Source: Tolypothrix carrinoi HA7290-LM1 (lineage in GTDB: Bacteria > Cyanobacteriota > Cyanobacteriia > Cyanobacteriales > Nostocaceae). From it: a DNA stretch of 22,040 bases. Numbering within the stretch: the stretch's first letter is position 1; the number at the start of each line of letters is the position of its first letter. This document shows, piece by piece, positions 3,105-22,040 of this stretch. A model generated the notes under the pieces. It saw nothing but the letters and a program-made list of their open reading frames with translations, searched no databases and had not been told where the DNA came from. The DNA lies in the NCBI GenBank assembly GCA_019358935.1, contig JAHHIK010000127.1, positions 1 through 22,040 of the forward strand. Reading direction: 5' to 3'. The translations under genes and the position numbers were made by a program.

Positions 3105-3234
3105 AGGGAAGAGAAAAAATGTGCTGGCTCCATACTACAATATAATACAACATGTTTAACTGCAAGTTTCTTACCTTGCCACCAATTGATATCATGTTCA
3201 GTTAAAAACTTATTATTTTAATTTTTTATTGCTC

Positions 3235-3672
3235 ATGCTCACGTTTACCCAACGTCAACCGCCAAATATTGCTACAGAAGTTACTTTAACTCTTGCACTC
3301 ACAGCAGAAGAACGCACTCGCAGTCGTCATCGCTTTGAAACGAAAGATGGAGAAGTTGTATTTTTGCGTTTACCGAGAGGAACGGTGTTACATGATGGCG
3401 ATATTCTTCAAGATGAAACAAATAGCAATTTCATTAGAATTGCTGCCAAACCAGAACCTGTTTTAACTGCACTTGCGGAAACACCGTTATTATTATTACG
3501 GGCGGCATATCATTTGGGAAATCGTCATGTACCATGTGAAATTACTGCAAGTTATTTACGCTTTTTGCCCGATTCTGTTTTACGCTCAATGTTGGAACAA
3601 TTGGGGCTAAAAATTCAAGAAGAAATTTTACCTTTTCAGCCAGAAATGGGCGCTTATGGACACACTCACTGA
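3235..3672 (+). CDS. ureE: Urease accessory protein UreE
   Basis: [19 protein letters not shown] and PFQPEMGAY motifs. ATG at 3235 (alternative TTG at 3229). Confidence 0.95.
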
Positions 3673-4336
3673 GAGCAATCTTTTATGTCTTTTACAGTTA
3701 GCGAGTCCGGCTTTACCTGTGGGAGCATATAGTTATTCTGAAGGATTGGAAACGCTGGTAGAAAATAACGTTATTAATAATCAAGAAAGTTTACAGCATT
3801 GGTTGAAAGCCGAATTGCGTTATGGGGCGATTCGGTTAGAAGCGGCGGTGATGGTAAGAGCTTATAATTGTGTGATTAGGAATGATTTAGAAGCGCTATC
3901 TCGTTGGAATATGTGGTTAACTGCGGCAAGGGAAACTGAAGAATTACGCAACTCTAGTTTACAAATGGGGCGATCGCTTATCCAATTATTTGCTAAACTA
4001 CAACCACAAATCATGCCTATTGTCAATGCTGTGGGTAATTGCAATTATGCGATCGCTTTCGGCATTGCGGCTGCTTACTGGGATATCAATATTCAAGCCG
4101 CAATCTTAGGATATCTGCATAGCTGGGTAAGTAATTTAATCACTGCTGGCGTGAAACTTATACCTTTAGGACAAACAGCAGGACAGTTGTTATTGCTGAA
4201 TTTACAACCACTAATTAACGATGCAACAGCGTCCATTCTCGCCTTAGAAGATGATAACCTTAGTTGTTGTAGTTGGGGTCTATCTTTAGCAAGCATGGCG
4301 CATGAAACCCAGTATACAAGATTATTTCGCAGTTAG
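3656..4336 (+). CDS. ureF: Urease accessory protein UreF
   Basis: [27 protein letters not shown] and C-terminal [11 protein letters not shown]. Confidence 0.97.
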
Positions 4337-4337
4337 G

Positions 4338-4555
4338 ATTGGGGAATGGAAAATGGGGAATGGAAAATGGGGAATAGGGAATGGGGAATGGAAAATGGGG
4401 AATGGGGAATCGGGCAGGGGGGCAGGGGGGCAGTTCTTGGCAGGAGGAGAAATATTTCTTCTTTCTTACCGATGCCCAATGCCCTATGCCCTATGCCCTA
4501 TGCCCTATGCCCAATGCCCAATGCCCAATGCCCAATTACCAATTACCAATTACCA
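4338..4555. repeat. STRR heptamer arrays (GGGAATG/GGAAAAT, then TGCCCTA, TGCCCAA, TTACCAA)
   Basis: Tandem 7-mers fill the ureF-ureG gap, with a G-rich block facing a C-rich block; typical of heterocystous cyanobacteria. Confidence 0.93.
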
Positions 4556-5152
4556 ATGAACCCATTTCGAGTAGGTGTAGCAGGTCCGGTAGGATCGGGA
4601 AAGACGGCTTTGGTGGATGCTTTGTGTAAGGCGATGCGTGAAAAATATAATATTGCCGTCGTGACAAATGATATCTATACTCAGGAGGATGCACAATTTT
4701 TGGTGCGTTCTCAAGCTTTGAGTGGCGATCGCATTTTGGGTGTAGAAACTGGTGGTTGTCCCCACACAGCTATTCGCGAAGATGCTTCGATGAATTTAGC
4801 AGCAATTGAACAGTTAGAAGTGCGTTTTCCTGATTTAGATTTAGTCTTTTTAGAAAGTGGTGGCGATAATTTGGCAGCTACCTTTAGTCCGGAATTAGTT
4901 GATTTAACTATTTACGTTATTGATGTTGCTGCTGGCGATAAAATTCCTCGCAAAGGTGGTCCCGGCATTACTAAATCTGATTTATTAGTGATAAATAAAA
5001 TCGATTTGGCTTTCTATGTAGGTGCAGATTTAAATGTCATGGAACGCGATGCTAAAAAAATGCGCGGTGAGAAACCTTTTATTTTCACTAATTTGAAAAC
5101 GCAATCGGGATTAGCAGATATAATTAAGTTTGTATCTACTAATATTTGTTAA
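4556..5152 (+). CDS. ureG: Urease accessory GTPase UreG (198 aa)
   Basis: GPVGSGKT P-loop, ETGGCPH, ESGGDNL and NKID. True start ATG 4556; the upstream 70 codons are STRR repeats. Confidence 0.97.
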
Positions 5153-8407: not shown

Positions 8408-8765
8408 TTCAAAGGAAGAGAAACTCAAATCACTCTGCGGTAAGAATTAAGTAAATGCTTGATTAGTTCTGGGCTTAACCATTGCTTTTGAATCTATAGA
8501 CATACTTTGGCTGAAGCACCCTAGAAATTAAGAGGAATTTCCTTCCCCTGTAGATTGTATGAGAACTTACGCAAAACGTCACTAGTAAGTCAGGATTTTT
8601 TAGTTGCTCCCATCTGGAAATCCGCTTGTAGACTATGTTTACGCATTGGCAGAAAATTTATGCATTTTGTAAAGCCTAAGTACAAGGTTGTCTCTTTTAC
8701 GAATATTTTTTATTGTATACAGGCATTCTTATAAAGACTGCTGCTGTCGTTGGGTCGTGCATGGG

Positions 8766-9235
8766 GATGCGTGAAAAATATAATATTGCTGTTGTGACGA
8801 ATGATATCTAGAAGGAAGGAGGATGCACAATATTTGGTGCATCCTCAAGCCTTGAGTGGCGATCGCATTTTGGGTGTAGAAACTGGTGGTTGTCCCCACA
8901 CAGCTATTCGCGAAGATGCTTCGATGAATTTAGCCGCAATTGAACAATTAGAAGTACGTTTTCCTGATTTAGATTTAGTCTTTTTAGAAAGTGGTGGCGA
9001 TAATTTGGCAGCTACCTTTAGTCCGGAATTAGTTGCTGCTGGCGATAAAATTCCTCGCAAAGGTAGTCCCGGCATTACTAAATCTGATTTATTAGTGATA
9101 AATAAAGCAGATTTAAATGTAATGGAACGGGATGCTAAAAAAATGCGTGGTGATAAACCGTTTATTTTTACTAACTTAAAAATTAAACAAGGATTAAAAG
9201 AGGTAATTGAGTTTGTTTTTCAAAATATTTGTTAA
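8766..9235 (+). pseudogene. ureG: Second, broken ureG copy
   Basis: Near-identical to 4633-5152 in the middle. It lacks the P-loop, has a frameshift near 8810, and has in-frame deletions of DLTIYVIDV (27 bp) and IDLAFYVG (24 bp). Confidence 0.93.
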
Positions 9236-9323
9236 TTTATAATTATTAATAGCATTAATAGATAAAATGGTAGGCATTGCCCACCATATATTAATCATAT
9301 CATGTCGGGTGTTGGAACACCTA

Positions 9324-13462: not shown

Positions 13463-13780
13463 GTGGAAGAACAAATACGATGCTTTGTAATTAGCCGCAA
13501 AATTCTGCGGCAATTTTGTGAAGCACACGCAGATGCTTGTGATGCGCTTTACGATTGGTATAAAGTCGCTACTAAAGCAGAATGGAAAAATCTTGTTGAT
13601 CAACTAGCAATTTACATAAAAGCTGAAGCGGTTGGCAACTTCACTGTTTTTAATATAAAAGGAAACCACTACCGTTTAATTGTCGATATTGTTTACTCAA
13701 GCCAGAGAATCTATATCAAATACGTTCTGACTCATGCTGAATACGATAAGGATAAATGGAAAGATGACCCGTACTTTTAA
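13463..13780 (+). CDS. higB: HigB-family toxin (start region irregular)
   Basis: VISRKILRQF, VFNIKGNHYRLI and THAEYDK motifs. Confidence 0.85.
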   Translation: MEEQIRCFVISRKILRQFCEAHADACDALYDWYKVATKAEWKNLVDQLAIYIKAEAVGNFTVFNIKGNHYRLIVDIVYSSQRIYIKYVLTHAEYDKDKWKDDPYF

Positions 13781-14162
13781 TCCTGAATTTTATGGTCAAT
13801 TACTAGCCAAGTATCAGCCCAAAACAATTACCACAGAAGAAGAGAACGAGCAAGCGATCGCTCTCGCTCAAGATTTAGAACATCGTCCTAATCGAACCCC
13901 GGAAGAGGAAACGCTTTTAGAACTTTTGGTAACACTAATCGAAAAGTTTGAAGAAACTCATTACCCAATCCCTCAAGGTACACCCCATTCGATGCTACTA
14001 CACTTGATGGAAGCGCGGGATATTGATCCAAAAGCATTAGTTGGGGTAATTGGCTCATTGGAAACTGTTTTTGAAATCATTAATGGCGAAAAAAATATTA
14101 GTAAATCTCAAGCAAAAGCGCTTGCTGAATTATTTAAAGTCAATGAAAATTTGTTTATATAG
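13764..14162 (+). CDS. higA: HigA-family antitoxin (HTH)
   Basis: LELLVTLIEKFE and LLHLMEAR...EIINGEKNISKSQAKALAELF; overlaps the higB stop. Confidence 0.88.
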   Translation: MTRTFNPEFYGQLLAKYQPKTITTEEENEQAIALAQDLEHRPNRTPEEETLLELLVTLIEKFEETHYPIPQGTPHSMLLHLMEARDIDPKALVGVIGSLETVFEIINGEKNISKSQAKALAELFKVNENLFI

Positions 14163-14241: not shown

Positions 14242-14713
14242 ATGAATGAGTTGGTTCCTAAGTTACAAGTAATAAATGTTAGTAAGTCCTATGCTAATTA
14301 TTTGGCAAATAATCGAGTAAAAATGACGATTCAGCGGGGTGAAATTCATGCTTTGTTGGGACAAAATGGAGCGGGTAAAAGTACTTTGATGAAGATGATT
14401 TACGGGTTGGTGCGTCCGGATGCTGGAGAGATTTTTTGGGAGGGGGAAAAAGTTAATTTTAATAGTCCAGCACAGGCAAGAATGCTTGGTGTGGGTATGG
14501 TGTTTCAGCACTTTTCTTTGTTTGAAAGTTTGACTGTTACGGAAAATATTGCTTTGGCACTTCCGAAGGGTGATTTCTGAAGATTTGGATGAGTTGTTTG
14601 TTTTATGCGATCGCCTGGGTGTAATCTACAAAGGACAGCTTTCTCCCCTAAAGTCCATACAAGAGACTAACCGAGATGAAATCGGGCAATTAATGGGGGG
14701 AATTGGCGCATGA
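14242..14713 (+). pseudogene. Nucleoside/sugar ABC ATPase with large internal deletion
   Basis: N-terminus GQNGAGKST and VFQHF. From about 14570, in another frame, comes the family C-terminus VISEDLDELFVLCDRLGVIYKG...EIGQLMGGIGA* ending at 14713. Confidence 0.9.
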
Positions 14714-14748
14714 TACCTTGAGAAAGTAATTCCCATAAAGATGATATT

Positions 14749-15045
14749 TTATCCTTCAGGTGTCCATTTTCGACTACATTTTAATAAATCGCCTTCGACT
14801 TTGTAATCACATTTTTCCAAAAAGGTTTGTCCTAAAAGACCTGTTGTTCTTTCTGGTGCGATCGCTACCAATACATTATCCACTTTTGCCCCACCAACTT
14901 CTACCGAATTAACAAAACCGACACCCCATTCTACTGTTTGGTTATTTGCCACTGTGAATGGTATTTTATCTATTACTTGCACTTTCAATGCATTTGCCAT
15001 CTTTTGGGTAATAACGGTAGCGCCAGCGCCGGTATCCAAAATCAT
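14749..15045 (-). pseudogene. Retropepsin-like aspartyl protease C-terminal fragment
   Basis: ILDTGA catalytic motif and GLLGQTFL. The 5' side abuts permease sequence on the opposite strand with no promoter or N-terminus. Confidence 0.75.
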
Positions 15046-15676
15046 CGGTGCGAATCAAGTCGCTACCGGTTTAGCCCTGACTATTTTTGCTTCGGGACTC
15101 AGTGCTTTTGTCGGTGCTGACTATGTAGGCAAAACAATCACCGGACTGCAACAAATGAACAAATCAATACCTCTATTGAACCAGGATATTGTAGTATATT
15201 TATCAATCATCTTGGTGATTTTAGTATCATGGTTTTTGCGAAAAACACGGTCAGGGTTGGTGCTGCGAAGTGTGGGTGAATCTCCAGAAGCAGCGGATGC
15301 TTTGGGTTTGCCTGTTGTCAGAGTGCGCTATTTTGCGGTAATGTTTGGTGGAGCGATGGCTTTCTTTAGCGCATTTGTTATCTCTCGCTTGCGTATACGC
15401 CGCTGTGGGCGGAAAATATGACAGCAGGACGAGGATGGATTGCGATCGCTCTCGTAGTTTTTGCCACCTGGAAACCGATTAAAATTCTCTTGGGTGCTTA
15501 CTTATTTGGCGGCGTAAGTGCGATACAGTTGATTGTGCAAGGACTGGGATTTGATATTTCTCCTTATCTTTTATCTGCGTTGCCCTACTTAGCTACTATC
15601 GTGGTATTGGTGATTATCTCACGCGATGCCACGCGCATTCAACTAGTAGCACCCGCATCTTTGGGTGAACCTTTTC
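15046..15676 (+). pseudogene. ABC nucleoside permease, 5'-truncated, frameshifted near 15380 and interrupted at its 3' end by the element
   Basis: ANQVATGLAL, GLVLRSVGESPEAADALG, AYTPLWAENMTAGRGWIAIALV and APASLGEPF. Confidence 0.9.
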
Positions 15677-16878
15677 ACTCTAGATAAATCGTTTTGACTA
15701 ACTCTTTAAATAGTAGCTTTGCAGCTTTGGCGCTAATACGCGATCGCACTAATCGAATCGGACGCCCCGCCGCTTTTTCAGCATCCAACTGAGAACCCAG
15801 CGCTGCACCAATCTCATTATCAAGACGGCAGCGCTTAACCTCGATGCGGGTGAAAACCCATTGCCAGAAAGCAATACGGCACAAATCAGAACCACCGACA
15901 ATTTTAATTTTACTTTTGTCACCGCTTGCTTCTAGGGACGGTGCAAGCCCTAGAGACTTCTGAAATCGGCGTAACGAAAGGTAGCGTTTAGTTGGCTTTC
16001 CAGACTTTCGACCCTTGCTAATTCTTACCTCTGGCTTACCGTCAGCACCAAAGTAATTTTCCAAGGGGTAAATTTGACTGAGGATAATTGCCTCTAATCG
16101 CAACCCGAAACCAAAGGTTTTAAATACCTGGCGATAAGCCGTAAATTTCGGAGCGGTCAAAAGCTGCTGTAGTTCGACCTCAATACTGTGTTCTTCTCGC
16201 TGTAAGTCACATAAACGTCTTGCGTGATGCCGAACTGTTTCAGTAATGTCCAATCCAGCAGAGCGATCTAATATCGCGTCGTATCGTTTGATGAATGCGT
16301 TCCCCACACAACCACCCCCACAATAAGGGCACGTCACCATCAATTGCCCGTCGAGAATTTACGTGTGCGACTTCTGGGAATTGCCAAGCTAAGTCTTGAC
16401 GCAAACGATTGATAATTGGCGATTGCACCCGGTTGAGGTGAGCAAGTCGCAACACCAATTCTCTAATGCGGGTTGTGGTGAAATCGCGAATTTGTACAAA
16501 GCGCCTGGGGGAATCGAAATAGTCAAAGTAGTAACAGGCGAGTGCTAGTGCGTCGGCATCGTCATCTTTGTCGGGCAGACTTAATTGGTGTTCCCGGTAA
16601 TTTCTCAACTCTTTGTGTCCCACAAGTCTGACCTCGACCCCGGTACGAGCCAAGTGTGTTCCCCAAAGTTTTGAGTAATTTACACCAGTCGGCTCCATGA
16701 GTGCAATATCAGGATGCAGCGCCAGCAGTGCTTTTATTCCCTCGCTGTTGGCGCTAAACGACATGAACGGACATTCATAGTAAAATTGACGAGGATCGCT
16801 TGGCTTGCTTTCGAGCAAGCACGCTCTAACTGAGGACTTGCTAATATCAAGCCCCAAAATTCTTTTATTCTCTTGCAT
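15675..16878 (-). pseudogene. IS110-family DEDD (bridge) recombinase, about 400 aa, split by one frameshift near 16295
   Basis: LGLDISK, MEPTG and KDDDADA in the RuvC-like domain; GLAPSLEASG serine loop in the C-terminal domain. The two ORFs join at WLCGER / KRYD. Confidence 0.88.
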
Positions 16879-16909
16879 TGGGTGTGGTTGTTGGTTATTA
16901 ACCCCGTAT

Positions 16910-17112
16910 AAAAAGCCTGCGAATCACCCAAAAGCACGTAGCCTAACTCACTCTTAAGGCTGCGTCAAAACGGGAACCTTGACGCTACGAGGCAAGCTGT
17001 AGAAAGTGCAGTAACCGAGCTTGTGAAAAGGTAAAAGCAGTAATGCTTGATTCGTCCTGAAAGCCCTAAATTACTGCACTACTTACAGGCGAATGATTTG
17101 GACTCGATCCGC
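16910..17112 (-). ncRNA. Putative IS110 bridge RNA
   Basis: A 10-bp stem AGUGCAGUAA/UUACUGCACU encloses an internal loop with UCAGGACGAA and ACCUUUUCAC, the latter matching junction 15669-15678. A second domain holds AGAGUGA matching the element end. Outer stem GCCUGU/GCAGGC is followed by a U-tract. Confidence 0.8.
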
Positions 17113-17163
17113 GACTCCCAATATGGGAGTTTCGCCAGTTTTTTAGTCCGGCTCGTCAGGCGG
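17109..17163 (-). ncRNA. Type I hammerhead ribozyme
   Basis: CCGC-CUGACGA-GCCGG(ACUAAAAAA)CUGGC-GAAA-CUCCCA(UAU)UGGGAG-UC^GCGG. The full conserved core and three stems are present, with predicted cleavage between 17113 and 17112. Confidence 0.92.
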
Positions 17164-17164
17164 T

Positions 17165-17356
17165 TTACCTAAATTGCTCGTGAAGTATCGCCTCGGCATC
17201 TCTTACAAAGCCTTGCGCTTTTTGATAAAGTTCTGAGTTTGGGAACTCTTCTAAACTTACAATTTCTAAAGCCTTATCAATTAAAGCTTTGGAATGCTGA
17301 CAAGAGTGCCAAATAAGATAAAAATCCCAACGCGGGATCTGAGTGTAGATCGTCAT
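17165..17356 (-). CDS. Hypothetical protein (63 aa)
   Basis: ATG directly follows the upstream stop; last ORF before the ribozyme. Confidence 0.7.
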   Translation of the reverse strand: MTIYTQIPRWDFYLIWHSCQHSKALIDKALEIVSLEEFPNSELYQKAQGFVRDAEAILHEQFR

Positions 17357-17581
17357 TCATAGCTGTTGGCTAATTTGTGCATAGGCGTTAATCATGTCTT
17401 CACGTTGTTTTGGAGTCATTTGTTTAAATTGTTCATCTGCTCTATCAGATAAATACTGCATCCAATAATCTAGAGTTTGACTGCTGTTATGTGCGATTAA
17501 TTGACAGGCAATTCCGGTGAGCAAGGAATTAGTCAGAAACTCTTCCTTGTCCATTACGATTTCATCGTTTTCTATTCGCAT
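17357..17581 (-). CDS. Hypothetical protein (74 aa)
   Basis: TAATG coupling with the upstream ORF. Confidence 0.7.
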   Translation of the reverse strand: MRIENDEIVMDKEEFLTNSLLTGIACQLIAHNSSQTLDYWMQYLSDRADEQFKQMTPKQREDMINAYAQISQQL

Positions 17582-17772
17582 TAAAATCCCTCTGGAACGT
17601 CATCATCTTTGATTACGGGCGGGTAAAGTTGCGCCCAGACAAAGGCTTTCAGTTCCTCTCCAGCCAGGTGAGGGTCTTCCCCTTCGCTAATAATGGCGAT
17701 CGCTTCAAAAGTTTCGCTCTGATAATTCCCCAGGTTTTTTACTCGCTTGTAAGTGATAGTTTCGATTTTCAT
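17581..17772 (-). CDS. Small phage-like hypothetical protein (MKIETITYKRVKNLGNYQSE...)
   Basis: The NLGNYxS motif and acidic DDDVPxxF tail resemble small phage early proteins; start set at ATG 17772. Confidence 0.7.
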   Translation of the reverse strand: MKIETITYKRVKNLGNYQSETFEAIAIISEGEDPHLAGEELKAFVWAQLYPPVIKDDDVPEGF

Positions 17773-17847
17773 GGTGGTGATAAAATACACTTGTCTGAAT
17801 TGTCAAAGGCGATCGCACTCTCACACAAGGGCGCGATCGCACTTAAA

Positions 17848-18384
17848 TTACCATCCCTGTTTTTCTCCTTCCTGCAACAGCTGTTGCAATACCTGTTTAC
17901 CCCTCTCCCAGTTCCTTCCTCCCAGTCCTAAAACCGACTCAATAATGTAAGTCTCGGACTTCCCAACTTCCATCAAACTTTTCACAGCAATATATAGCTG
18001 TTTTTGGGAAGTGTCAGTGGAAGTTTCAACCGGATGCTCGGCTGATGGCTCTTGCACCAAGTGTTCTAGGGATTTTTCTAGTTCCTGCCTAACTTCCGGG
18101 CTGTAAGTGGGCGTAACTAAGTACATTTCTTTTAATGCCTGCTCTTGCGAGTAAGCCTGCAACGACAAATCAACTACCTCCATCTCCTGATTCATTGCAG
18201 CCATTGCACCGCGACGCGCTTCTTGCAACACCAATTGACGACTATAACGCACTGACTCAATTGATGTTGCAATTGCCACAACATGAGCCACACCTTTACC
18301 AAACTTTCCTATTGGGGCAAGTGCAACCAGCCAAGCAACGGCGGCAGTGGCAAGTAAACTATTTGCTCTTATCCAAGTAACCAT
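17848..18384 (-). CDS. Hypothetical membrane-anchored coiled-coil protein
   Basis: N-terminal hydrophobic segments and helical C-terminus; overlaps the upstream gene. Confidence 0.75.
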   Translation of the reverse strand: MVTWIRANSLLATAAVAWLVALAPIGKFGKGVAHVVAIATSIESVRYSRQLVLQEARRGAMAAMNQEMEVVDLSLQAYSQEQALKEMYLVTPTYSPEVRQELEKSLEHLVQEPSAEHPVETSTDTSQKQLYIAVKSLMEVGKSETYIIESVLGLGGRNWERGKQVLQQLLQEGEKQGW

Positions 18385-18638
18385 TGCAATACCCCTCCAG
18401 TTATCAAGGCTATTTTGATGGCGATTAACAATCCGTAATAGTCCTGTTGTTTGAGTTTGAGGTAGCCAGCAATGGCATCGTCAGCTAACCAAGCCATTGC
18501 TGTTAAGGCAAATAAAACAATTTGGATTGCAATTGAGGAATAGCGCAATGCAGGATGCAATGAACCAACCCACACGATCGCGCTCTCAGTGATGCACCCC
18601 AACAAAAACCAGCAAGCCAGATGCATCACCTTGACCAT
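18369..18638 (-). CDS. Small hydrophobic membrane protein (about 3 TM)
   Basis: Three hydrophobic stretches; stop/start coupling at 18638. Confidence 0.72.
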   Translation of the reverse strand: MVKVMHLACWFLLGCITESAIVWVGSLHPALRYSSIAIQIVLFALTAMAWLADDAIAGYLKLKQQDYYGLLIAIKIALITGGVLQWLLG

Positions 18639-19150
18639 TAGTAGCGCTCCTTCGCCTTAGCTTTGAGTTCTTCAATGCGCTGTTGCGCTCCTGCATCAGC
18701 GCGGTCTAGCCCGTTGTTCATGCGAACGTATTCGGGGCGTTGCGCGTGCAACTTCTTACCCAATCGGGTGTTTGAGCGTAGCTTGGTTAATTCGCTCTCT
18801 GCCACGTTGCCCTGATACTTTCGGTGAGCGACATGCACCGTTGCATCGGCTTTTTCAATCTTGCCTAAAGATTTGTAAGCGCGTTGCGATTGCCTTGCAC
18901 CTTCAGTTTTCTCTGTTGCAAGTCTTTTCAGGGCATCGGCTTCAGGTTTATTGAAGTATCTTGGTTTTTCAACAATCGGCGCGGTGCGAATGCTTTCCCA
19001 AGTGCCGGGGTTAGTGGGGTTGATAACTTCGGGGTTGGTTGGTTGTAGCACCACATCTTTATTAATGGCATGACCCCCAGTAGTGAGCGTACTACTGCTA
19101 CTAGATTTATTCCCCTTTATCCGGTCGGTGATTCTTGCTAAAATTCCCAT
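18638..19150 (-). CDS. Basic helical hypothetical protein (170 aa)
   Basis: GGAG RBS upstream; operon position. Confidence 0.75.
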   Translation of the reverse strand: MGILARITDRIKGNKSSSSSTLTTGGHAINKDVVLQPTNPEVINPTNPGTWESIRTAPIVEKPRYFNKPEADALKRLATEKTEGARQSQRAYKSLGKIEKADATVHVAHRKYQGNVAESELTKLRSNTRLGKKLHAQRPEYVRMNNGLDRADAGAQQRIEELKAKAKERY

Positions 19151-19162
19151 AGGTTCCGTCTC

Positions 19163-19414
19163 CTAATTGCACAAGGTTTTTTTGACTTCTGAAAGCTGTT
19201 TGGCTTGGGCTTTGAGATGTTCAATCTGGGTGAATTCTGTTGATTGATGCACGCTGATTCCCCCAATTGCCAAGCCAGCAACGAACAGCAACACCGCTAT
19301 GGTCAGTAGTGGTGTTGTTTGTTTTGGGGGTTCAACTTCAGGTGGTAACTGAGGATGCAAGTACCCAGTAAAGGGAACTACAACCCGCGATTGGTGATCT
19401 TTAGCTTTCTCCAT
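19163..19414 (-). CDS. Single-TM hypothetical protein
   Basis: One TM helix (LLTIAVLLFVAGLAIGGI); overlaps the upstream gene. Confidence 0.7.
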   Translation of the reverse strand: MEKAKDHQSRVVVPFTGYLHPQLPPEVEPPKQTTPLLTIAVLLFVAGLAIGGISVHQSTEFTQIEHLKAQAKQLSEVKKTLCN

Positions 19415-19850
19415 CTGGCAGCCTCATATAGTTTGGGAGTAGCGAGAAAGTACCAATAGATAAGGCGTTTTGAGTGCTTTGCTCAATTAGGGTTTTCTCC
19501 GCTTCAGTCGGATTGGTTCGCATTTGCTGGATGCGTCGAACTACACGAGTTGGTAACTCTTGCCAAAAGCGCTGTGCATAGTAGCTAGCAGCATCGTCGA
19601 GCAAGGTTTCGATTAATGTGTCGGCTTCGGGTGAAGCGTCTTCGGTTGCACTGATTGGGCGGGTTTTTAGAAACTCTACACCAGTAGAAGTCCAGAGCTT
19701 GCGACCGTCTGGTTCGATGACGAAGTGTAGGTTTTCAATAAACTTGCCAGGGTGACGGCTCATCCAGCTACGAATAGTCCCTTCTGGGATGCCTGTAACT
19801 TCAGCCGCTTCTGGGGTGGTGTATTTTTTATCGGGTTGTTTGGCTGGCAT
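19401..19850 (-). CDS. MerR/Xis-like HTH DNA-binding protein
   Basis: YTTPEAAEVTGIPEGTIRSW...GRKLWT winged-HTH pattern. Confidence 0.75.
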   Translation of the reverse strand: MPAKQPDKKYTTPEAAEVTGIPEGTIRSWMSRHPGKFIENLHFVIEPDGRKLWTSTGVEFLKTRPISATEDASPEADTLIETLLDDAASYYAQRFWQELPTRVVRRIQQMRTNPTEAEKTLIEQSTQNALSIGTFSLLPNYMRLPDGES

Positions 19851-19954
19851 TTTCTACGCTGGGGTTGTTTTGATTTATCTCATCTGCCCAAATAATTAGC
19901 CCCCGTCTATCAAGTTCTTTCAAGCTTCTATCGTTAATTTCTTCAACAATAAAA

Positions 19955-20212
19955 TCAGGCAGGATGCGAATAATTAAGCGAGTAAGGTGTTGGAGGATTT
20001 CCATAATTAGTTTTCAACTTTGGCTTACAAGGTTCTCCGTCTTCGTCTACTGCTTCAGCAAAGTAATAAGGGTCTACATCCTCTGAGTGGACTTGACCAA
20101 CCTCGCAGTTATATACAAACTCTCCTGTCGTCAAAGTGTCGTAAACGTTGATAGACTGCTCTGGATGCCACTTTTCCAGAGCATCTTCCAAATATTCGCC
20201 TCTTATTTTCAT
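19955..20212 (-). CDS. Acidic hypothetical protein (85 aa)
   Basis: AAGGAG RBS before ATG 20212. Confidence 0.7.
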   Translation of the reverse strand: MKIRGEYLEDALEKWHPEQSINVYDTLTTGEFVYNCEVGQVHSEDVDPYYFAEAVDEDGEPCKPKLKTNYGNPPTPYSLNYSHPA

Positions 20213-20451
20213 TCGTATATTCTCCTTTTTACGTGTTGGTGAGCAGATTTTGGGCTTGTTCGGGGGCAATTGGAACTAACTGAAAGTGCTTTAAAGCTAA
20301 TTCGAGTTGGACACTTTCGACGCTGGGGCGCAAATCTCACTCGCTTAACTGCTGGCAGGTCTTTAAAAAGCACTACGGGCTAGCAGGCTGCCATCTCTGC
20401 TTGGTTTGCGGTTGGGGAGCAATTTAGTTTTGTCTTTACGAATCTAATGTT

Positions 20452-20479
20452 AGTATAATGCAAAGACATAACCTGTCAA
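20452..20479 (-). promoter_or_regulatory. Sigma70-type promoter for the leftward operon
   Basis: TTGACA-N16-TATACT on the minus strand. Confidence 0.7.
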
Positions 20480-20532
20480 CAGTTTTGTATATACAAAAAA
20501 ATTTTGTAAAGATAAAATGGGGCTATAGTTCA

Positions 20533-20919
20533 GTGAAAACGAAGAATGGCACGACCCAAGACGCTAGCGGACGACGCAAAAACAGTAAACGTAAGAATGA
20601 GCCAGTACGACTGGGAGAATATGGACAAAATAGCCCAAATGAGGGGACTGAGCAGGTCGGAAATGCTGCGCTTGATAGCACAGGAGAAGATACCGCTTGG
20701 TCAGATAGCCACAGAAAAGCTAATCCTGGGAAAATCCTTGAGCGTCTCGAGCTGATAGAAAAAACTTTTTTATCTTATGTGCAGGGACATCAGCAGCGTC
20801 TTGAGACGCGACTAGACGAAAGCAAGACCATAGAAACTATTTTCAAAGACGAAGTCGCGGCGCTCAAACAAGAAATTTATCATTTAACTTCGGACATTCC
20901 CGAAGACCATACAGAATAA
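20533..20919 (+). CDS. Coiled-coil hypothetical protein overlapping the RHH gene in another frame (start uncertain: ATG 20458 or GTG 20533)
   Basis: Protein-like helical C-terminus GKILERLELIEKTFLSYVQGHQQRLETRLDESK, with the stop directly followed by a terminator. Confidence 0.6.
   Translation: MKTKNGTTQDASGRRKNSKRKNEPVRLGEYGQNSPNEGTEQVGNAALDSTGEDTAWSDSHRKANPGKILERLELIEKTFLSYVQGHQQRLETRLDESKTIETIFKDEVAALKQEIYHLTSDIPEDHTE
20546..20755 (+). CDS. Ribbon-helix-helix (CopG-like) regulator
   Basis: MARPK...TVNVRMSQYDWENMDKIAQMRGLSRSEMLR pattern. Confidence 0.8.
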   Translation: MARPKTLADDAKTVNVRMSQYDWENMDKIAQMRGLSRSEMLRLIAQEKIPLGQIATEKLILGKSLSVSS

Positions 20920-20952
20920 AGCCGTCCCCGCCTTGCGGTAGGACGGCTTTTT
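20918..20952 (+). terminator. Rho-independent terminator
   Basis: AAAGCCGTCC...GGACGGCTTTTT. Confidence 0.8.
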
Positions 20953-21019
20953 GATGGGTGCGATCGCCATCGAGGAGTGCGATCGCGTCCAATAACTAAT
21001 ACCCATTTAACCAAAACCT

Positions 21020-21271
21020 ATGAAACAAACCAGAAGAAGCGCACTTCATGAGGCTGCCCGGTTAAGCCCACTTTTCCAAGCAACAGAAATAGCGGGAGTC
21101 GAACTAACTAAACTTATCGACTTTATCGAATATCACAACCCGGACATAGACAGAGCCACTGCCACATTGACCGCCGCATTCGTCTTGTCCGAACTACCCA
21201 CTTTTCTTCTGCACAGCCCAAAAAATATGCAGCGGTTAAGCGCGATCGCACTCTGGTTTTCTCAAAGATAA
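21020..21271 (+). CDS. Hypothetical protein (83 aa)
   Basis: ORF bounded by two hairpins. Confidence 0.6.
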   Translation: MKQTRRSALHEAARLSPLFQATEIAGVELTKLIDFIEYHNPDIDRATATLTAAFVLSELPTFLLHSPKNMQRLSAIALWFSQR

Positions 21272-21278
21272 AAAATTA

Positions 21279-21320
21279 AAAAGCCCCCCAGAACTTTAGC
21301 AAAGACGGGCGGCTTTTATT
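21279..21320 (+). terminator. Possible terminator
   Basis: AAAAGCC...GGCTTTT with an imperfect stem after the stop. Confidence 0.5.
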
Positions 21321-21422
21321 AAGTTGATTGAACTATAGGTACTTACGTATCTGCTTAATCCGCTCACAAACCGCTTTCAATCACGCTCTTAATCGCTTTT
21401 ATAAGAAGAATGCAAACTTCTG

Positions 21423-21500
21423 CAATCACGCACTTACTTTGTACAATCACGCACTTACTTTGTACAATCACGCACTTACTTTGTACAATCATGCACTTAC
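21423..21500 (+). repeat. 21-bp direct repeat array CAATCACGCACTTACTTTGTA (3 perfect plus a partial copy), iteron-like
   Basis: Units start at 21423, 21444, 21465 and 21486; the array ends 4 bp before ATG 21505. Confidence 0.9.
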
Positions 21501-21504
21501 AATT

Positions 21505-22040
21505 ATGCCACAAAATCAATTAGTTTCTTTCCCCAATCGTGAAAATAAAGTTTCAGTAAAGTACAACAAACCTCATTGCATTATCCCCGTATCAGACATT
21601 ACATGGATAACGCAACAAGTAAAAGCAGTTCAGACATTGTGGAATGAATGTTGGGTATCAGACCCATTTGGCAGTCGATGGGAGAAGCTATCAACCAACC
21701 TCACAGAAACAGCATTTAGGTTAGCTAGAAAGATTTTATACGCAGCTGGGCTATTTGAATTTAAGCGCGATACCTGCATACATGACAGTCGAAAAACAGC
21801 GGGCTGGTTGGTAATTAATCTTCATGGCGCTAGAAGAATTAAAGACTTTTGGTGCAGCGAAGAAACTGAAACGACATCCGACATAAACACGGCGACATCC
21901 GACATAAACACGGCGACATCCGACATAAACACGGCGACATCCGACATAAACACGGCGACATCCGACATAAACACGGCGATATCCGACACAAAATCAACGG
22001 TGGAAATTGTTGAAACCCCTGAATTTTCAAGCGTTTCAGA
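21505..22040 (+). CDS. Putative replication initiator (wHTH-like), partial at window end
   Basis: Manual translation MPQNQLVSF...WNECWVSDPFGSRW...AFRLARKILYAAGLFEF...WLVINLHG is open to the edge and has upstream and internal 21-bp arrays. The function is inferred. Confidence 0.65.
   Translation, partial: MPQNQLVSFPNRENKVSVKYNKPHCIIPVSDITWITQQVKAVQTLWNECWVSDPFGSRWEKLSTNLTETAFRLARKILYAAGLFEFKRDTCIHDSRKTAGWLVINLHGARRIKDFWCSEETETTSDINTATSDINTATSDINTATSDINTATSDINTAISDTKSTVEIVETPEFSSVS
21872..21992 (+). repeat. Intragenic 21-bp array CGACATCCGACATAAACACGG (5 perfect plus 1 degenerate)
   Basis: Units start at 21872, 21893, 21914, 21935, 21956 and 21977 and encode TSDINTA repeats. Confidence 0.92.

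Follow-up and report, generated by a model that had tools for sequence, protein, structure and literature searches.

In the 22,040-nt stretch of Tolypothrix carrinoi HA7290-LM1 DNA that we analyzed (the window, which is the whole of contig C127 in a 7.96-Mb genome of 184 contigs, G000 in our numbering), we identify a bridge RNA of an IS110 recombinase, whose target-binding loop almost certainly acts as the guide that specifies the insertion site. We regard as likely the explanation as a whole, in which target guides and a donor-binding loop place an element of about 15 kb at the sequence GAA, and a hammerhead motif makes the 5′ end of the bridge RNA. The target-binding loop is made up of the following parts:

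17005..17080, minus strand: target-binding loop hairpin of the bridge RNA
17080-17071 / 17014-17005, minus strand: outer stem, from sequence and fold
17060-17051, minus strand: left strand of the internal loop, UCAGGACGAA
17048-17035, minus strand: inner hairpin
17032-17023, minus strand: right strand of the internal loop, ACCUUUUCAC
17051..17058, minus strand: left target guide AGGAC plus core GAA, in the top-strand sense of the target; equal to the flank TAGGAC-GAA on contig C59, with covariation in the family
17025..17032, minus strand: right target guide ACCUU plus UUC, matching 15669-15676; reverse complement of core GAA plus right target AAGGT

Folding of the 86-nt region returned a two-sided 12x12 internal loop with z = -4.27, and equal stability was reached in 0 of 200 shuffles; in the 44 of 46 RNA copies that were parsed, the scaffold of this loop is conserved and the guide positions vary. 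The stems, loop strands and coordinates are those given in an earlier note on this DNA, which had also reported the right-strand 10-mer to be identical to 15669-15678, as it is. Since about 0.05 matches to a given 10-mer are expected by chance in the window, this match is only suggestive alone, and it becomes decisive because of family-wide covariation and empty alleles. Of the 10-mer, only ACCTT belongs to the host; the TTC that follows is the common core, and the element end begins with the final AC. The identification as an IS110 target-binding loop was upheld by guide/flank covariation across the family, by the far junction and by empty alleles, and the same evidence demonstrated that the IS621 guide rules (left guide equal to the top strand, right guide its reverse complement, core covered by both) apply here.

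The insertion site itself comprises the following features:

15669..15673, minus strand: right target AAGGT, host DNA, in the last codons of the ABC permease gene (plus strand), with empty alleles in genomes G001, G003 and G005
15674..15676, minus strand: core GAA (TTC on the plus strand), repeated at the far junction, C59:51558-51560
15677..15683, minus strand: element right end and left donor sequence CTAGAGT, a common end with differing flanks in the own genome, overlapping the recombinase stop codon
14954..15687, plus strand: target gene, a BPD_transp_2 permease, frameshifted near 15360-15380

On the top strand of the element the target reads T-AGGAC-GAA-AAGGT, and the far junction is found on contig C59 of the own genome, where the element end precedes the target flank (...GTCTGGGGA-TTC-GTCCTAC). 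We read the C127 and C59 ends as one insertion with the core GAA at both junctions, the element extending from 22040 across the assembly gap to C59. Among contigs of at least 10 kb, none bridges C127 and C59 and no end overlap was found, so the link rests on the empty alleles and the guide, not on contiguous sequence. The earlier note had predicted a 15-base target, and 13 of these bases hold; the last two differ (at the C59 junction the plus strand reads GTCCTAC, where GTCCTGA was predicted), since the first two bases of the left strand, UC, take no part in specifying the target. The literal far-boundary string CGTCCTGA is absent, with CGTCCTA present, and the exact 15-mer is absent from the own genome, as expected since the site is occupied. 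All 16 matched left ends have a T immediately ahead of the five guided bases, whereas the RNA has U, G or C at this position.

The insertion replaces the last codons of the permease, R-P-T-D, by H-S-R. The reconstructed native end reads E-P-F-R-P, as the note had foreseen, and then T-D-stop in place of the predicted D/E. The permease end was matched in 14 of 41 genomes (own included), and the search of relatives that the note had proposed identified the empty site in three same-genus genomes (G001, G003 and G005), where it reads E-P-F-R-P-T/S-H-stop and lacks the predicted final GA on the plus strand. In empty alleles at three loci the left and right flanks are separated by exactly GAA, a 3-nt gap; other sets of guide, left end and right end in the own genome (C49 with C120, and C12 with C47) each have a one-GAA empty allele. 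The short core of a bridge system is present twice when the site is occupied and once when it is empty, and this is what we find for GAA. The core is thus not the CT of IS621, as the note had said, but the GA that it proposed is rejected, since GAA is repeated at both junctions and present once in the empty alleles. A preference for gene ends is unsupported: 3 of 15 rebuilt sites lie 10 codons or less from the point where a long open reading frame ends.

On the host side of the window, the ABC operon that was the target is decayed (14242-15687), with the ATPase cut at 112 aa and the permease truncated and frameshifted; a fragment of an aspartyl protease lies within it (14749-15045, minus strand). 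At the same permease site, a fourth same-genus genome (L201:1228, G010:C532) carries an element-end relic of about 15 nt followed by unrelated DNA, the scar of an imprecise loss. Elsewhere, HIP1 sites are present, as are 7-nt STRR-type repeats at 4322-4552; genes that we take to be ureE-, ureF- and ureG-like occupy 3229-5152 and 8733-9236, with a partial ureG duplicate 4.1 kb downstream, and 13463-14162 holds what is presumably a toxin-antitoxin-like gene pair, putatively of the HigB/HigA type.

As read from sequence, related elements carry other guides, and these match their own sites. The RNA had matches in 44 of the family's 251 genomes, counting the own genome; 40 fetched stretches together with five own contigs gave 46 RNA copies, of which all except C102 and L081 were parsed. 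Element ends were located by the donor motif only, and the relatives in these counts are non-independent samples. Among 37 distinct right ends, the right guide matched at 5/5 positions in 21 and at 4/5 or more in 27, with a mean of 4.0 against 1.60 on permutation, a mean reached in 0 of 20,000 permutations. Among 28 candidate left ends, 16 matched at 5/5, with a mean of 3.61 (permuted 1.60, permutation maximum 2.54), and a partly overlapping set selected by protein gave 42 perfect guide matches of 62. Ten of the 37 right ends matched at 3/5 or less, two of them at tandem junctions; the misfits include the tandem junctions L063, L075 and L076/L077, the reciprocal swap L062/L086, and C98. We observe 38 distinct guide pairs among the 43 copies with both loops parsed, where the donor loop is near-invariant, with GAA present in 43 of 44 left guides and TTC in 42 of 44 right guides.

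Several copies bear traces of exchange or sharing. L062 and L086 (G067:C1) have exchanged left flanks, implying inversion or exchange between both elements, and L056 (G006) and L062 (G067), from two genera, have the identical guide pair TTAGAT/ACTCC. In the own genome, the C98 copy (G000:C98:22928-24403, L207) is 98-100% identical to window positions ~17030-16030, including the guides and a recombinase frameshift, and has a right end of the C12 type with a flank that matches the guide at 2/5; this mosaic possibly reflects gene conversion between resident elements, or a collapsed assembly.

Downstream of the target-binding loop in the RNA lies a second loop, which together with the end of the first would read the donor DNA:

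16915..16962, minus strand: donor-binding loop, near-invariant in the family, matching the donor junction AGAGT-GAA-TCCCCA
16954-16947, minus strand: left donor guide, AGAGUGAG
16930-16921, minus strand: right donor guide, UGGGUGAUUC, with one bulged U, then GC
17023..17024, minus strand: putative handshake dinucleotide AC, the complement of the donor G-T that precedes the core on its left side

The donor loop (AGAGUGA / GGGUGAUUC) matches AGAGT-GAA-TCCCC, the joined element ends, and the donor-guide changes AGAAT and AGACT are mirrored in the element ends of L068, L082 and L084. The donor junction exists as contiguous DNA between the tandem copies L076/L077 (G062:C10), and also in L075 and L063. 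All of these are head-to-tail copies or circle-type junctions, and the unit in G062 is ~15.4 kb long. TTCACTCT starts the element end in 9 of 12 end matches in the own genome and is located 200-290 nt further out in C98 and C12. The own genome holds at least 12 right-end remnants and many left ends, and at two places (G000:C59:51696 and C47:58969) a further donor-like end is located 138 nt inward of the outermost left one.

The right strand of the target loop reads across the junction, because the two bases after UUC can pair with the donor, like IS621 handshake guides. We infer, by analogy with IS621 (PMC11208158), that AC is a handshake guide pairing with donor DNA. With G-U pairs allowed, 34 of 38 distinct guide sets have a first base able to pair with donor T, and all 38 have a second base able to pair with donor G; the dinucleotide across the family is AU in 17, GU in 11 and GC in 10 of 44 copies. 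No covariation between the donor-loop handshake and the targets was found in the family RNA set.

The enzyme that would use this RNA is encoded next to it:

15675..16878, minus strand: IS110 DEDD recombinase

In the window this gene scores 33.3 bits with PF01548 (cut-off 29) and exceeds the cut-off of NF051857 in two halves, being broken by a 1-nt insertion near 16295 that it has in common with the C98 copy; an intact relative scores 567 bits with NF051857. The Tnp domain PF02371 scores 16.7 bits, under its cut-off of 21.3. An open reading frame of at least 370 aa is present in 33 of 42 copies examined, including the intact C12 copy in the own genome. Because the C12 enzyme is intact and its element has the same donor loop, its predicted bridge-type activity could serve the window copy in trans. 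D11, E62 and a DKDDDAD motif are invariant in 14 homologues, and the invariant S318 (in APSxxxSG) is likely the candidate equivalent of the IS621 catalytic S241. Across the phylum, 25 of 301 genomes have a match to the recombinase family above its cut-off, against 0 of 14 control genomes; the closest recombinase records come from Scytonema, Tolypothrix, Hassallia and Nostoc, and the recombinase is present in two plasmid records. A profile of the recombinase gave no match among solved chains, and no relative was confirmed in the viral contig collection.

Inspection of the RNA alignment revealed the parts of a hammerhead immediately ahead of the target loop, namely CUGANGA, GAAA and GUC in this order, with a hairpin in each of the two intervals:

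17109..17163, minus strand: type I hammerhead motif, from descriptor and covariation, with a predicted cut between 17113 and 17112; it consists of stem I CCGC/GCGG, CUGACGA core, stem II (17152-17134), GAAA, stem III and GUC
17100..17105, minus strand: GAGUCC, the 3′ strand of the loop II pseudoknot; in the window copy an A-run weakens the partner strand

RF00163 (Hammerhead_1) is the top Rfam match of the 161-nt stretch holding the motif, and aligns over its full model (1-45) with a window score of 16.6 bits, below the gathering threshold of 34; an Rfam scan of 15000-22040 gave no match at E<=1. In the 29 copies with a short stem III, 88.8% of cells are paired, with 87 compensatory cells against 30.8 when shuffled and at most 30 in slid controls; the stems are paired at 90.5, 95.2 and 96.1%, and two-sided changes occur in 5 of 7 stem III pairs. 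Circularity was avoided by choosing 110 loci by their recombinase protein, of which 96 were kept and 14 dropped (6 as duplicates, 7 for truncation or insufficient upstream DNA, and 1 because it gave no match). A strict descriptor identified the motif within 500 nt upstream of 40 of these 96 recombinases, and in 0 of 288 control windows. In most of the loci missed by the strict descriptor, the CUGANGA box is followed by one additional base or by an insert of 28-61 nt, and a relaxed descriptor, written after inspecting the misses, found the motif at 80 of 96 recombinases and in 3 of 288 control windows. The other 16 fail even the relaxed descriptor, and some copies have U4C or core insertions. 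Within the 80 matches, CUGANGA is present in 70 and GUC in 74, and the predicted cut lies 200-255 nt ahead of the recombinase start in 71. The hammerhead is also retained with 5 of 10 recombinases of less than 45% identity.

In natural hammerheads a pseudoknot of the loop II type is reported to be critical for speed (PMC3088659). The complementarity of the pseudoknot strands has a mean run of 4.41 against 3.40 when permuted (maximum 3.76), and relatives contain compensatory versions, for example GACUC/GAGUC, GACAC/GUGUC, ACCC/GGGU and GGAAUC/GAUUCC; in the window copy about 3 bp of it are left. When folded, the predicted cut product forms a 5′ hairpin, followed by the target loop and, after one additional hairpin, the donor loop (z = -2.96). 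Taken from these sequence patterns, cleavage by the hammerhead is very likely in typical members of the family, and it probably matters for bridge function. The 28-61-nt insert of the Nostoc-type copies (L116, L117, L124-L128, L130-L132, L135 and L171) lies between the CUGAUGA box and stem II, and with its HIP1 site and hairpin is possibly a four-way hammerhead variant.

The bridge RNA and recombinase form one end of a much larger element. The 15 elements with both ends are 7.8-17.1 kb long, and 13 of them fall between 14.2 and 17.1 kb. In all 16 matched elements the RNA lies 6.4-15.4 kb downstream of the left end. The hammerhead, the donor loop and this element size (8-17 kb) all go beyond the loop that the earlier note had described. 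The element genes present in the window are:

17848..19850, minus strand: five-gene module, co-oriented with the bridge RNA and recombinase and present in 4 of 16 complete relatives; an HTH/excisionase-like gene (19401-19850), then 19163-19414, 18638-19150, 18369-18638 and 17848-18384
20458..22040, plus strand: further element genes, encoding a 153-aa protein and a protein of >237 aa with 21-nt repeats, ended by the contig end (families F9 and F24 in relatives)

The HTH protein has a relative that weakly matches MerR/HTH and phrog_66. The open reading frame at 21328 contains two in-frame 21-nt repeat arrays (21352-21500 and 21851-22013), which vary among copies. Gene order is conserved across genera, one family being common to all 16 complete elements and others to 10-14 of them, and 41 of 46 further loci selected by protein (with at least 6 kb upstream) share the element genes, the five exceptions being Microcoleus records. 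A 193-aa tyrosine recombinase lies mid-element in 16 of 16 complete elements and is present in 35 of the 46 further loci; an 850-aa coiled-coil protein occurs in 14 of 16, with collagen repeats in one case, which explain its tail-fibre PHROG matches. In addition, a P-loop protein or its C-terminal part is found in 11 of 16 and in both own-genome copies, an amidase in 3 of 16, together with several families without an assigned function and small, holin-sized membrane proteins. Profile and structure comparisons recognised no capsid, terminase or relaxase among the element genes. Two conserved cargo proteins were modelled with mean pLDDT of 85 and 89, and gave no match to viral structures at E<=0.001; their best Z scores were 5.5 (2H-phosphoesterase-like, rmsd 4.0, 116 aligned) and 2.9, atlas searches scored under 0.9 throughout, and the phage collection held no relative of the 280-aa cargo protein. 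That the element is a provirus is plausible from its gene content. We put forward only tentatively, as less probable than not, the fuller picture of ~15-kb proviruses or virus-like elements with RNA-guided IS110 integration, whose hammerhead-released guide is rewritten at nearly every site and whose ribozyme gates integration and excision.

Put together, these features suggest the following course of events. As read from the sequence, the target guides AGGAC-GAA and ACCUU-UUC specify T-AGGAC-GAA-AAGGT, the donor loop specifies AGAGT-GAA-TCCCCA, and recombination at the common GAA put the element into the last codons of the permease; a recombinase tetramer on both loops would, as in IS621, nick and exchange strands at the core. 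The AC dinucleotide would pair with donor DNA after the exchange, again as inferred from IS621, favouring insertion. The type I hammerhead would cut a longer element transcript after GUC (17113), and the released bridge RNA would consist of a 5′ stem-loop followed by the target and donor loops. IS621 transcribes its bridge RNA from a promoter that arises at the circle junction (PMC13626964). Such a promoter would be unable to set the 5′ end in our elements, where 6-15 kb separate the RNA from the left end; since the RNA is kilobases from the junction, behind co-oriented genes, a cis-cleaving ribozyme is a direct way to make this end. Promoter and terminator scans gave chance-level results. Read-through IS621 bridge RNAs have about twofold lower activity (PMC13626964), and as the loss is only this large, 5′ trimming may not be essential.

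This last point bears on a different reading of the hammerhead, in which the bridge RNA is real and the ribozyme is an ordinary one of prophages, acting on the upstream or recombinase mRNA and dispensable for the bridge RNA. In bacteria, hammerheads are often neighbours of integrase genes and flank genes of prophages (PMC3088659), 5′-extended IS621 bridge RNAs still function (PMC13626964), and the C49 copy has lost most of its hammerhead and kept both loops, its recombinase also being broken. We nevertheless consider this reading quite unlikely, in that the 3′ strand of the pseudoknot and stem I fall inside the future 5′ hairpin of the bridge RNA, the spacing from hammerhead to loop is fixed while the upstream gene varies, and the motif persists in the Microcoleus records without the common cargo. 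The core is more finely balanced. A dinucleotide core AA, corresponding to positions 8-9 of IS621 and preceded by an invariant G (position 7), with chemistry as in IS621, falls a little short of even in our estimation: T-N5-G-AA-N5 gives 14 nt, the 14-position geometry of IS621 with cleavage after 9 and the handshake at 6-7 (PMC11208158), but the G is present in the donor, in the targets and, at the frequencies given above, in both guides, and the two bases after UUC behave as a donor-pairing handshake.

With regard to the element, one alternative is an expanded IS110 that picked up unrelated DNA as it grew (as described by Hu et al. 2026), rather than a coherent virus- or plasmid-like element. 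Large cargo-bearing IS110s have been published (10.64898/2026.08.14.744561), the element genes include no identified capsid, terminase or relaxase, and C59 carries the second donor-like end 138 nt inside the first; the clustering of lengths, the synteny across genera and the retention of both canonical ends argue the other way, and we find capture somewhat unlikely. It is highly improbable that the tyrosine recombinase, for all its presence in every complete element, does the integrating with the IS110 module as a passenger. It lies mid-element and matches only parts of models of the catalytic domain, the attachment overlap is 3 bp, and the sites differ from element to element and track the RNA guides; because of this guide-flank covariation, that reading is already largely refuted.

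By those defining features that can be read from sequence, the system is an IS110 bridge system, but with a core and layout that are not those of IS621. Bridge RNAs and their guide rules have been published (PMC11208160), and the likeness to IS621 comprises a DEDD recombinase; an RNA upstream of the gene with a 5′ hairpin, a variable target loop and a conserved donor loop; a top-strand left guide, a complementary right guide, a 14-nt site and a bulged right donor guide; a handshake dinucleotide (AU in IS621); and no target duplication beyond the core (PMC11208160, PMC11208158, PMC13626964). In contrast, the core is GAA (or AA) rather than CT, the recombinase has about 400 aa rather than 326, and the RNA is remote from the left end, whereas that of IS621 adjoins the junction promoter in a short left end; the 5′ hammerhead motif, the length of the element and an own target for nearly every copy also set it apart. 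In the IS1111 group the RNA is in the right end, downstream of the gene, whereas here it is upstream and the right end is 7 nt overlapping the stop codon. Expanded IS110s resemble our elements in ends and guides that bound multi-gene elements, in tandem duplication and in inversions between copies, but have heterogeneous, plasmid-derived, resistance-rich cargo, often one canonical end, and occur mainly in enterobacteria (10.64898/2026.08.14.744561), unlike the conserved syntenic genes, tight size class and both canonical ends found here; the available text of that preprint contains no match to "cyanobacter" or "Nostoc". Filamentous phages (Neisseria Nf, and Thermus Zuza8, Zuza27 and phiOH16) have an IS110 gene at the provirus end that is thought to integrate and excise them (PMC11437467, the available part of which mentions neither guide RNA nor ribozyme); our element is larger, with no recognised inovirus hallmark genes.

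Bacterial and prophage type I hammerheads (RF00163; PMC3088659, PMC6155905) have in common with ours the CUGANGA/GAAA/NUH core, three stems, a pseudoknot and integrase-like neighbours. Here, however, the motif is fixed directly 5′ of a bridge RNA, has a short stem I and scores below the Rfam threshold, and many Nostoc copies have the 28-61-nt insert after the CUGANGA box. The supplement of PMC3088659 lists three cyanobacteria with hammerheads, and its available text gives no match to "IS110" or "transposase"; a 2026 preprint, in the part available, handles bridge RNAs and a divergent hammerhead cluster separately. Our literature search, in which subscription journals were thinly covered, found no paper linking a natural hammerhead to a bridge RNA; the loci described here may already stand in earlier surveys of hammerheads, with no such link drawn.

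The roles of bacterial hammerheads are still largely open (PMC6155905), and a link between hammerhead and bridge RNA would give them a specific job, that of making the 5′ end of a guide RNA. It would also be a second answer to how a bridge RNA is produced when the junction promoter is out of reach. The family would add to the bridge recombinases a clade with a non-CT core, natural 15-kb payloads and a self-trimming guide, which may be useful for engineering and for cyanobacterial genetics, and its ~40 natural pairs of guide and target, all built on one scaffold, bring within reach the question of how the guides of IS110 elements are rewritten.
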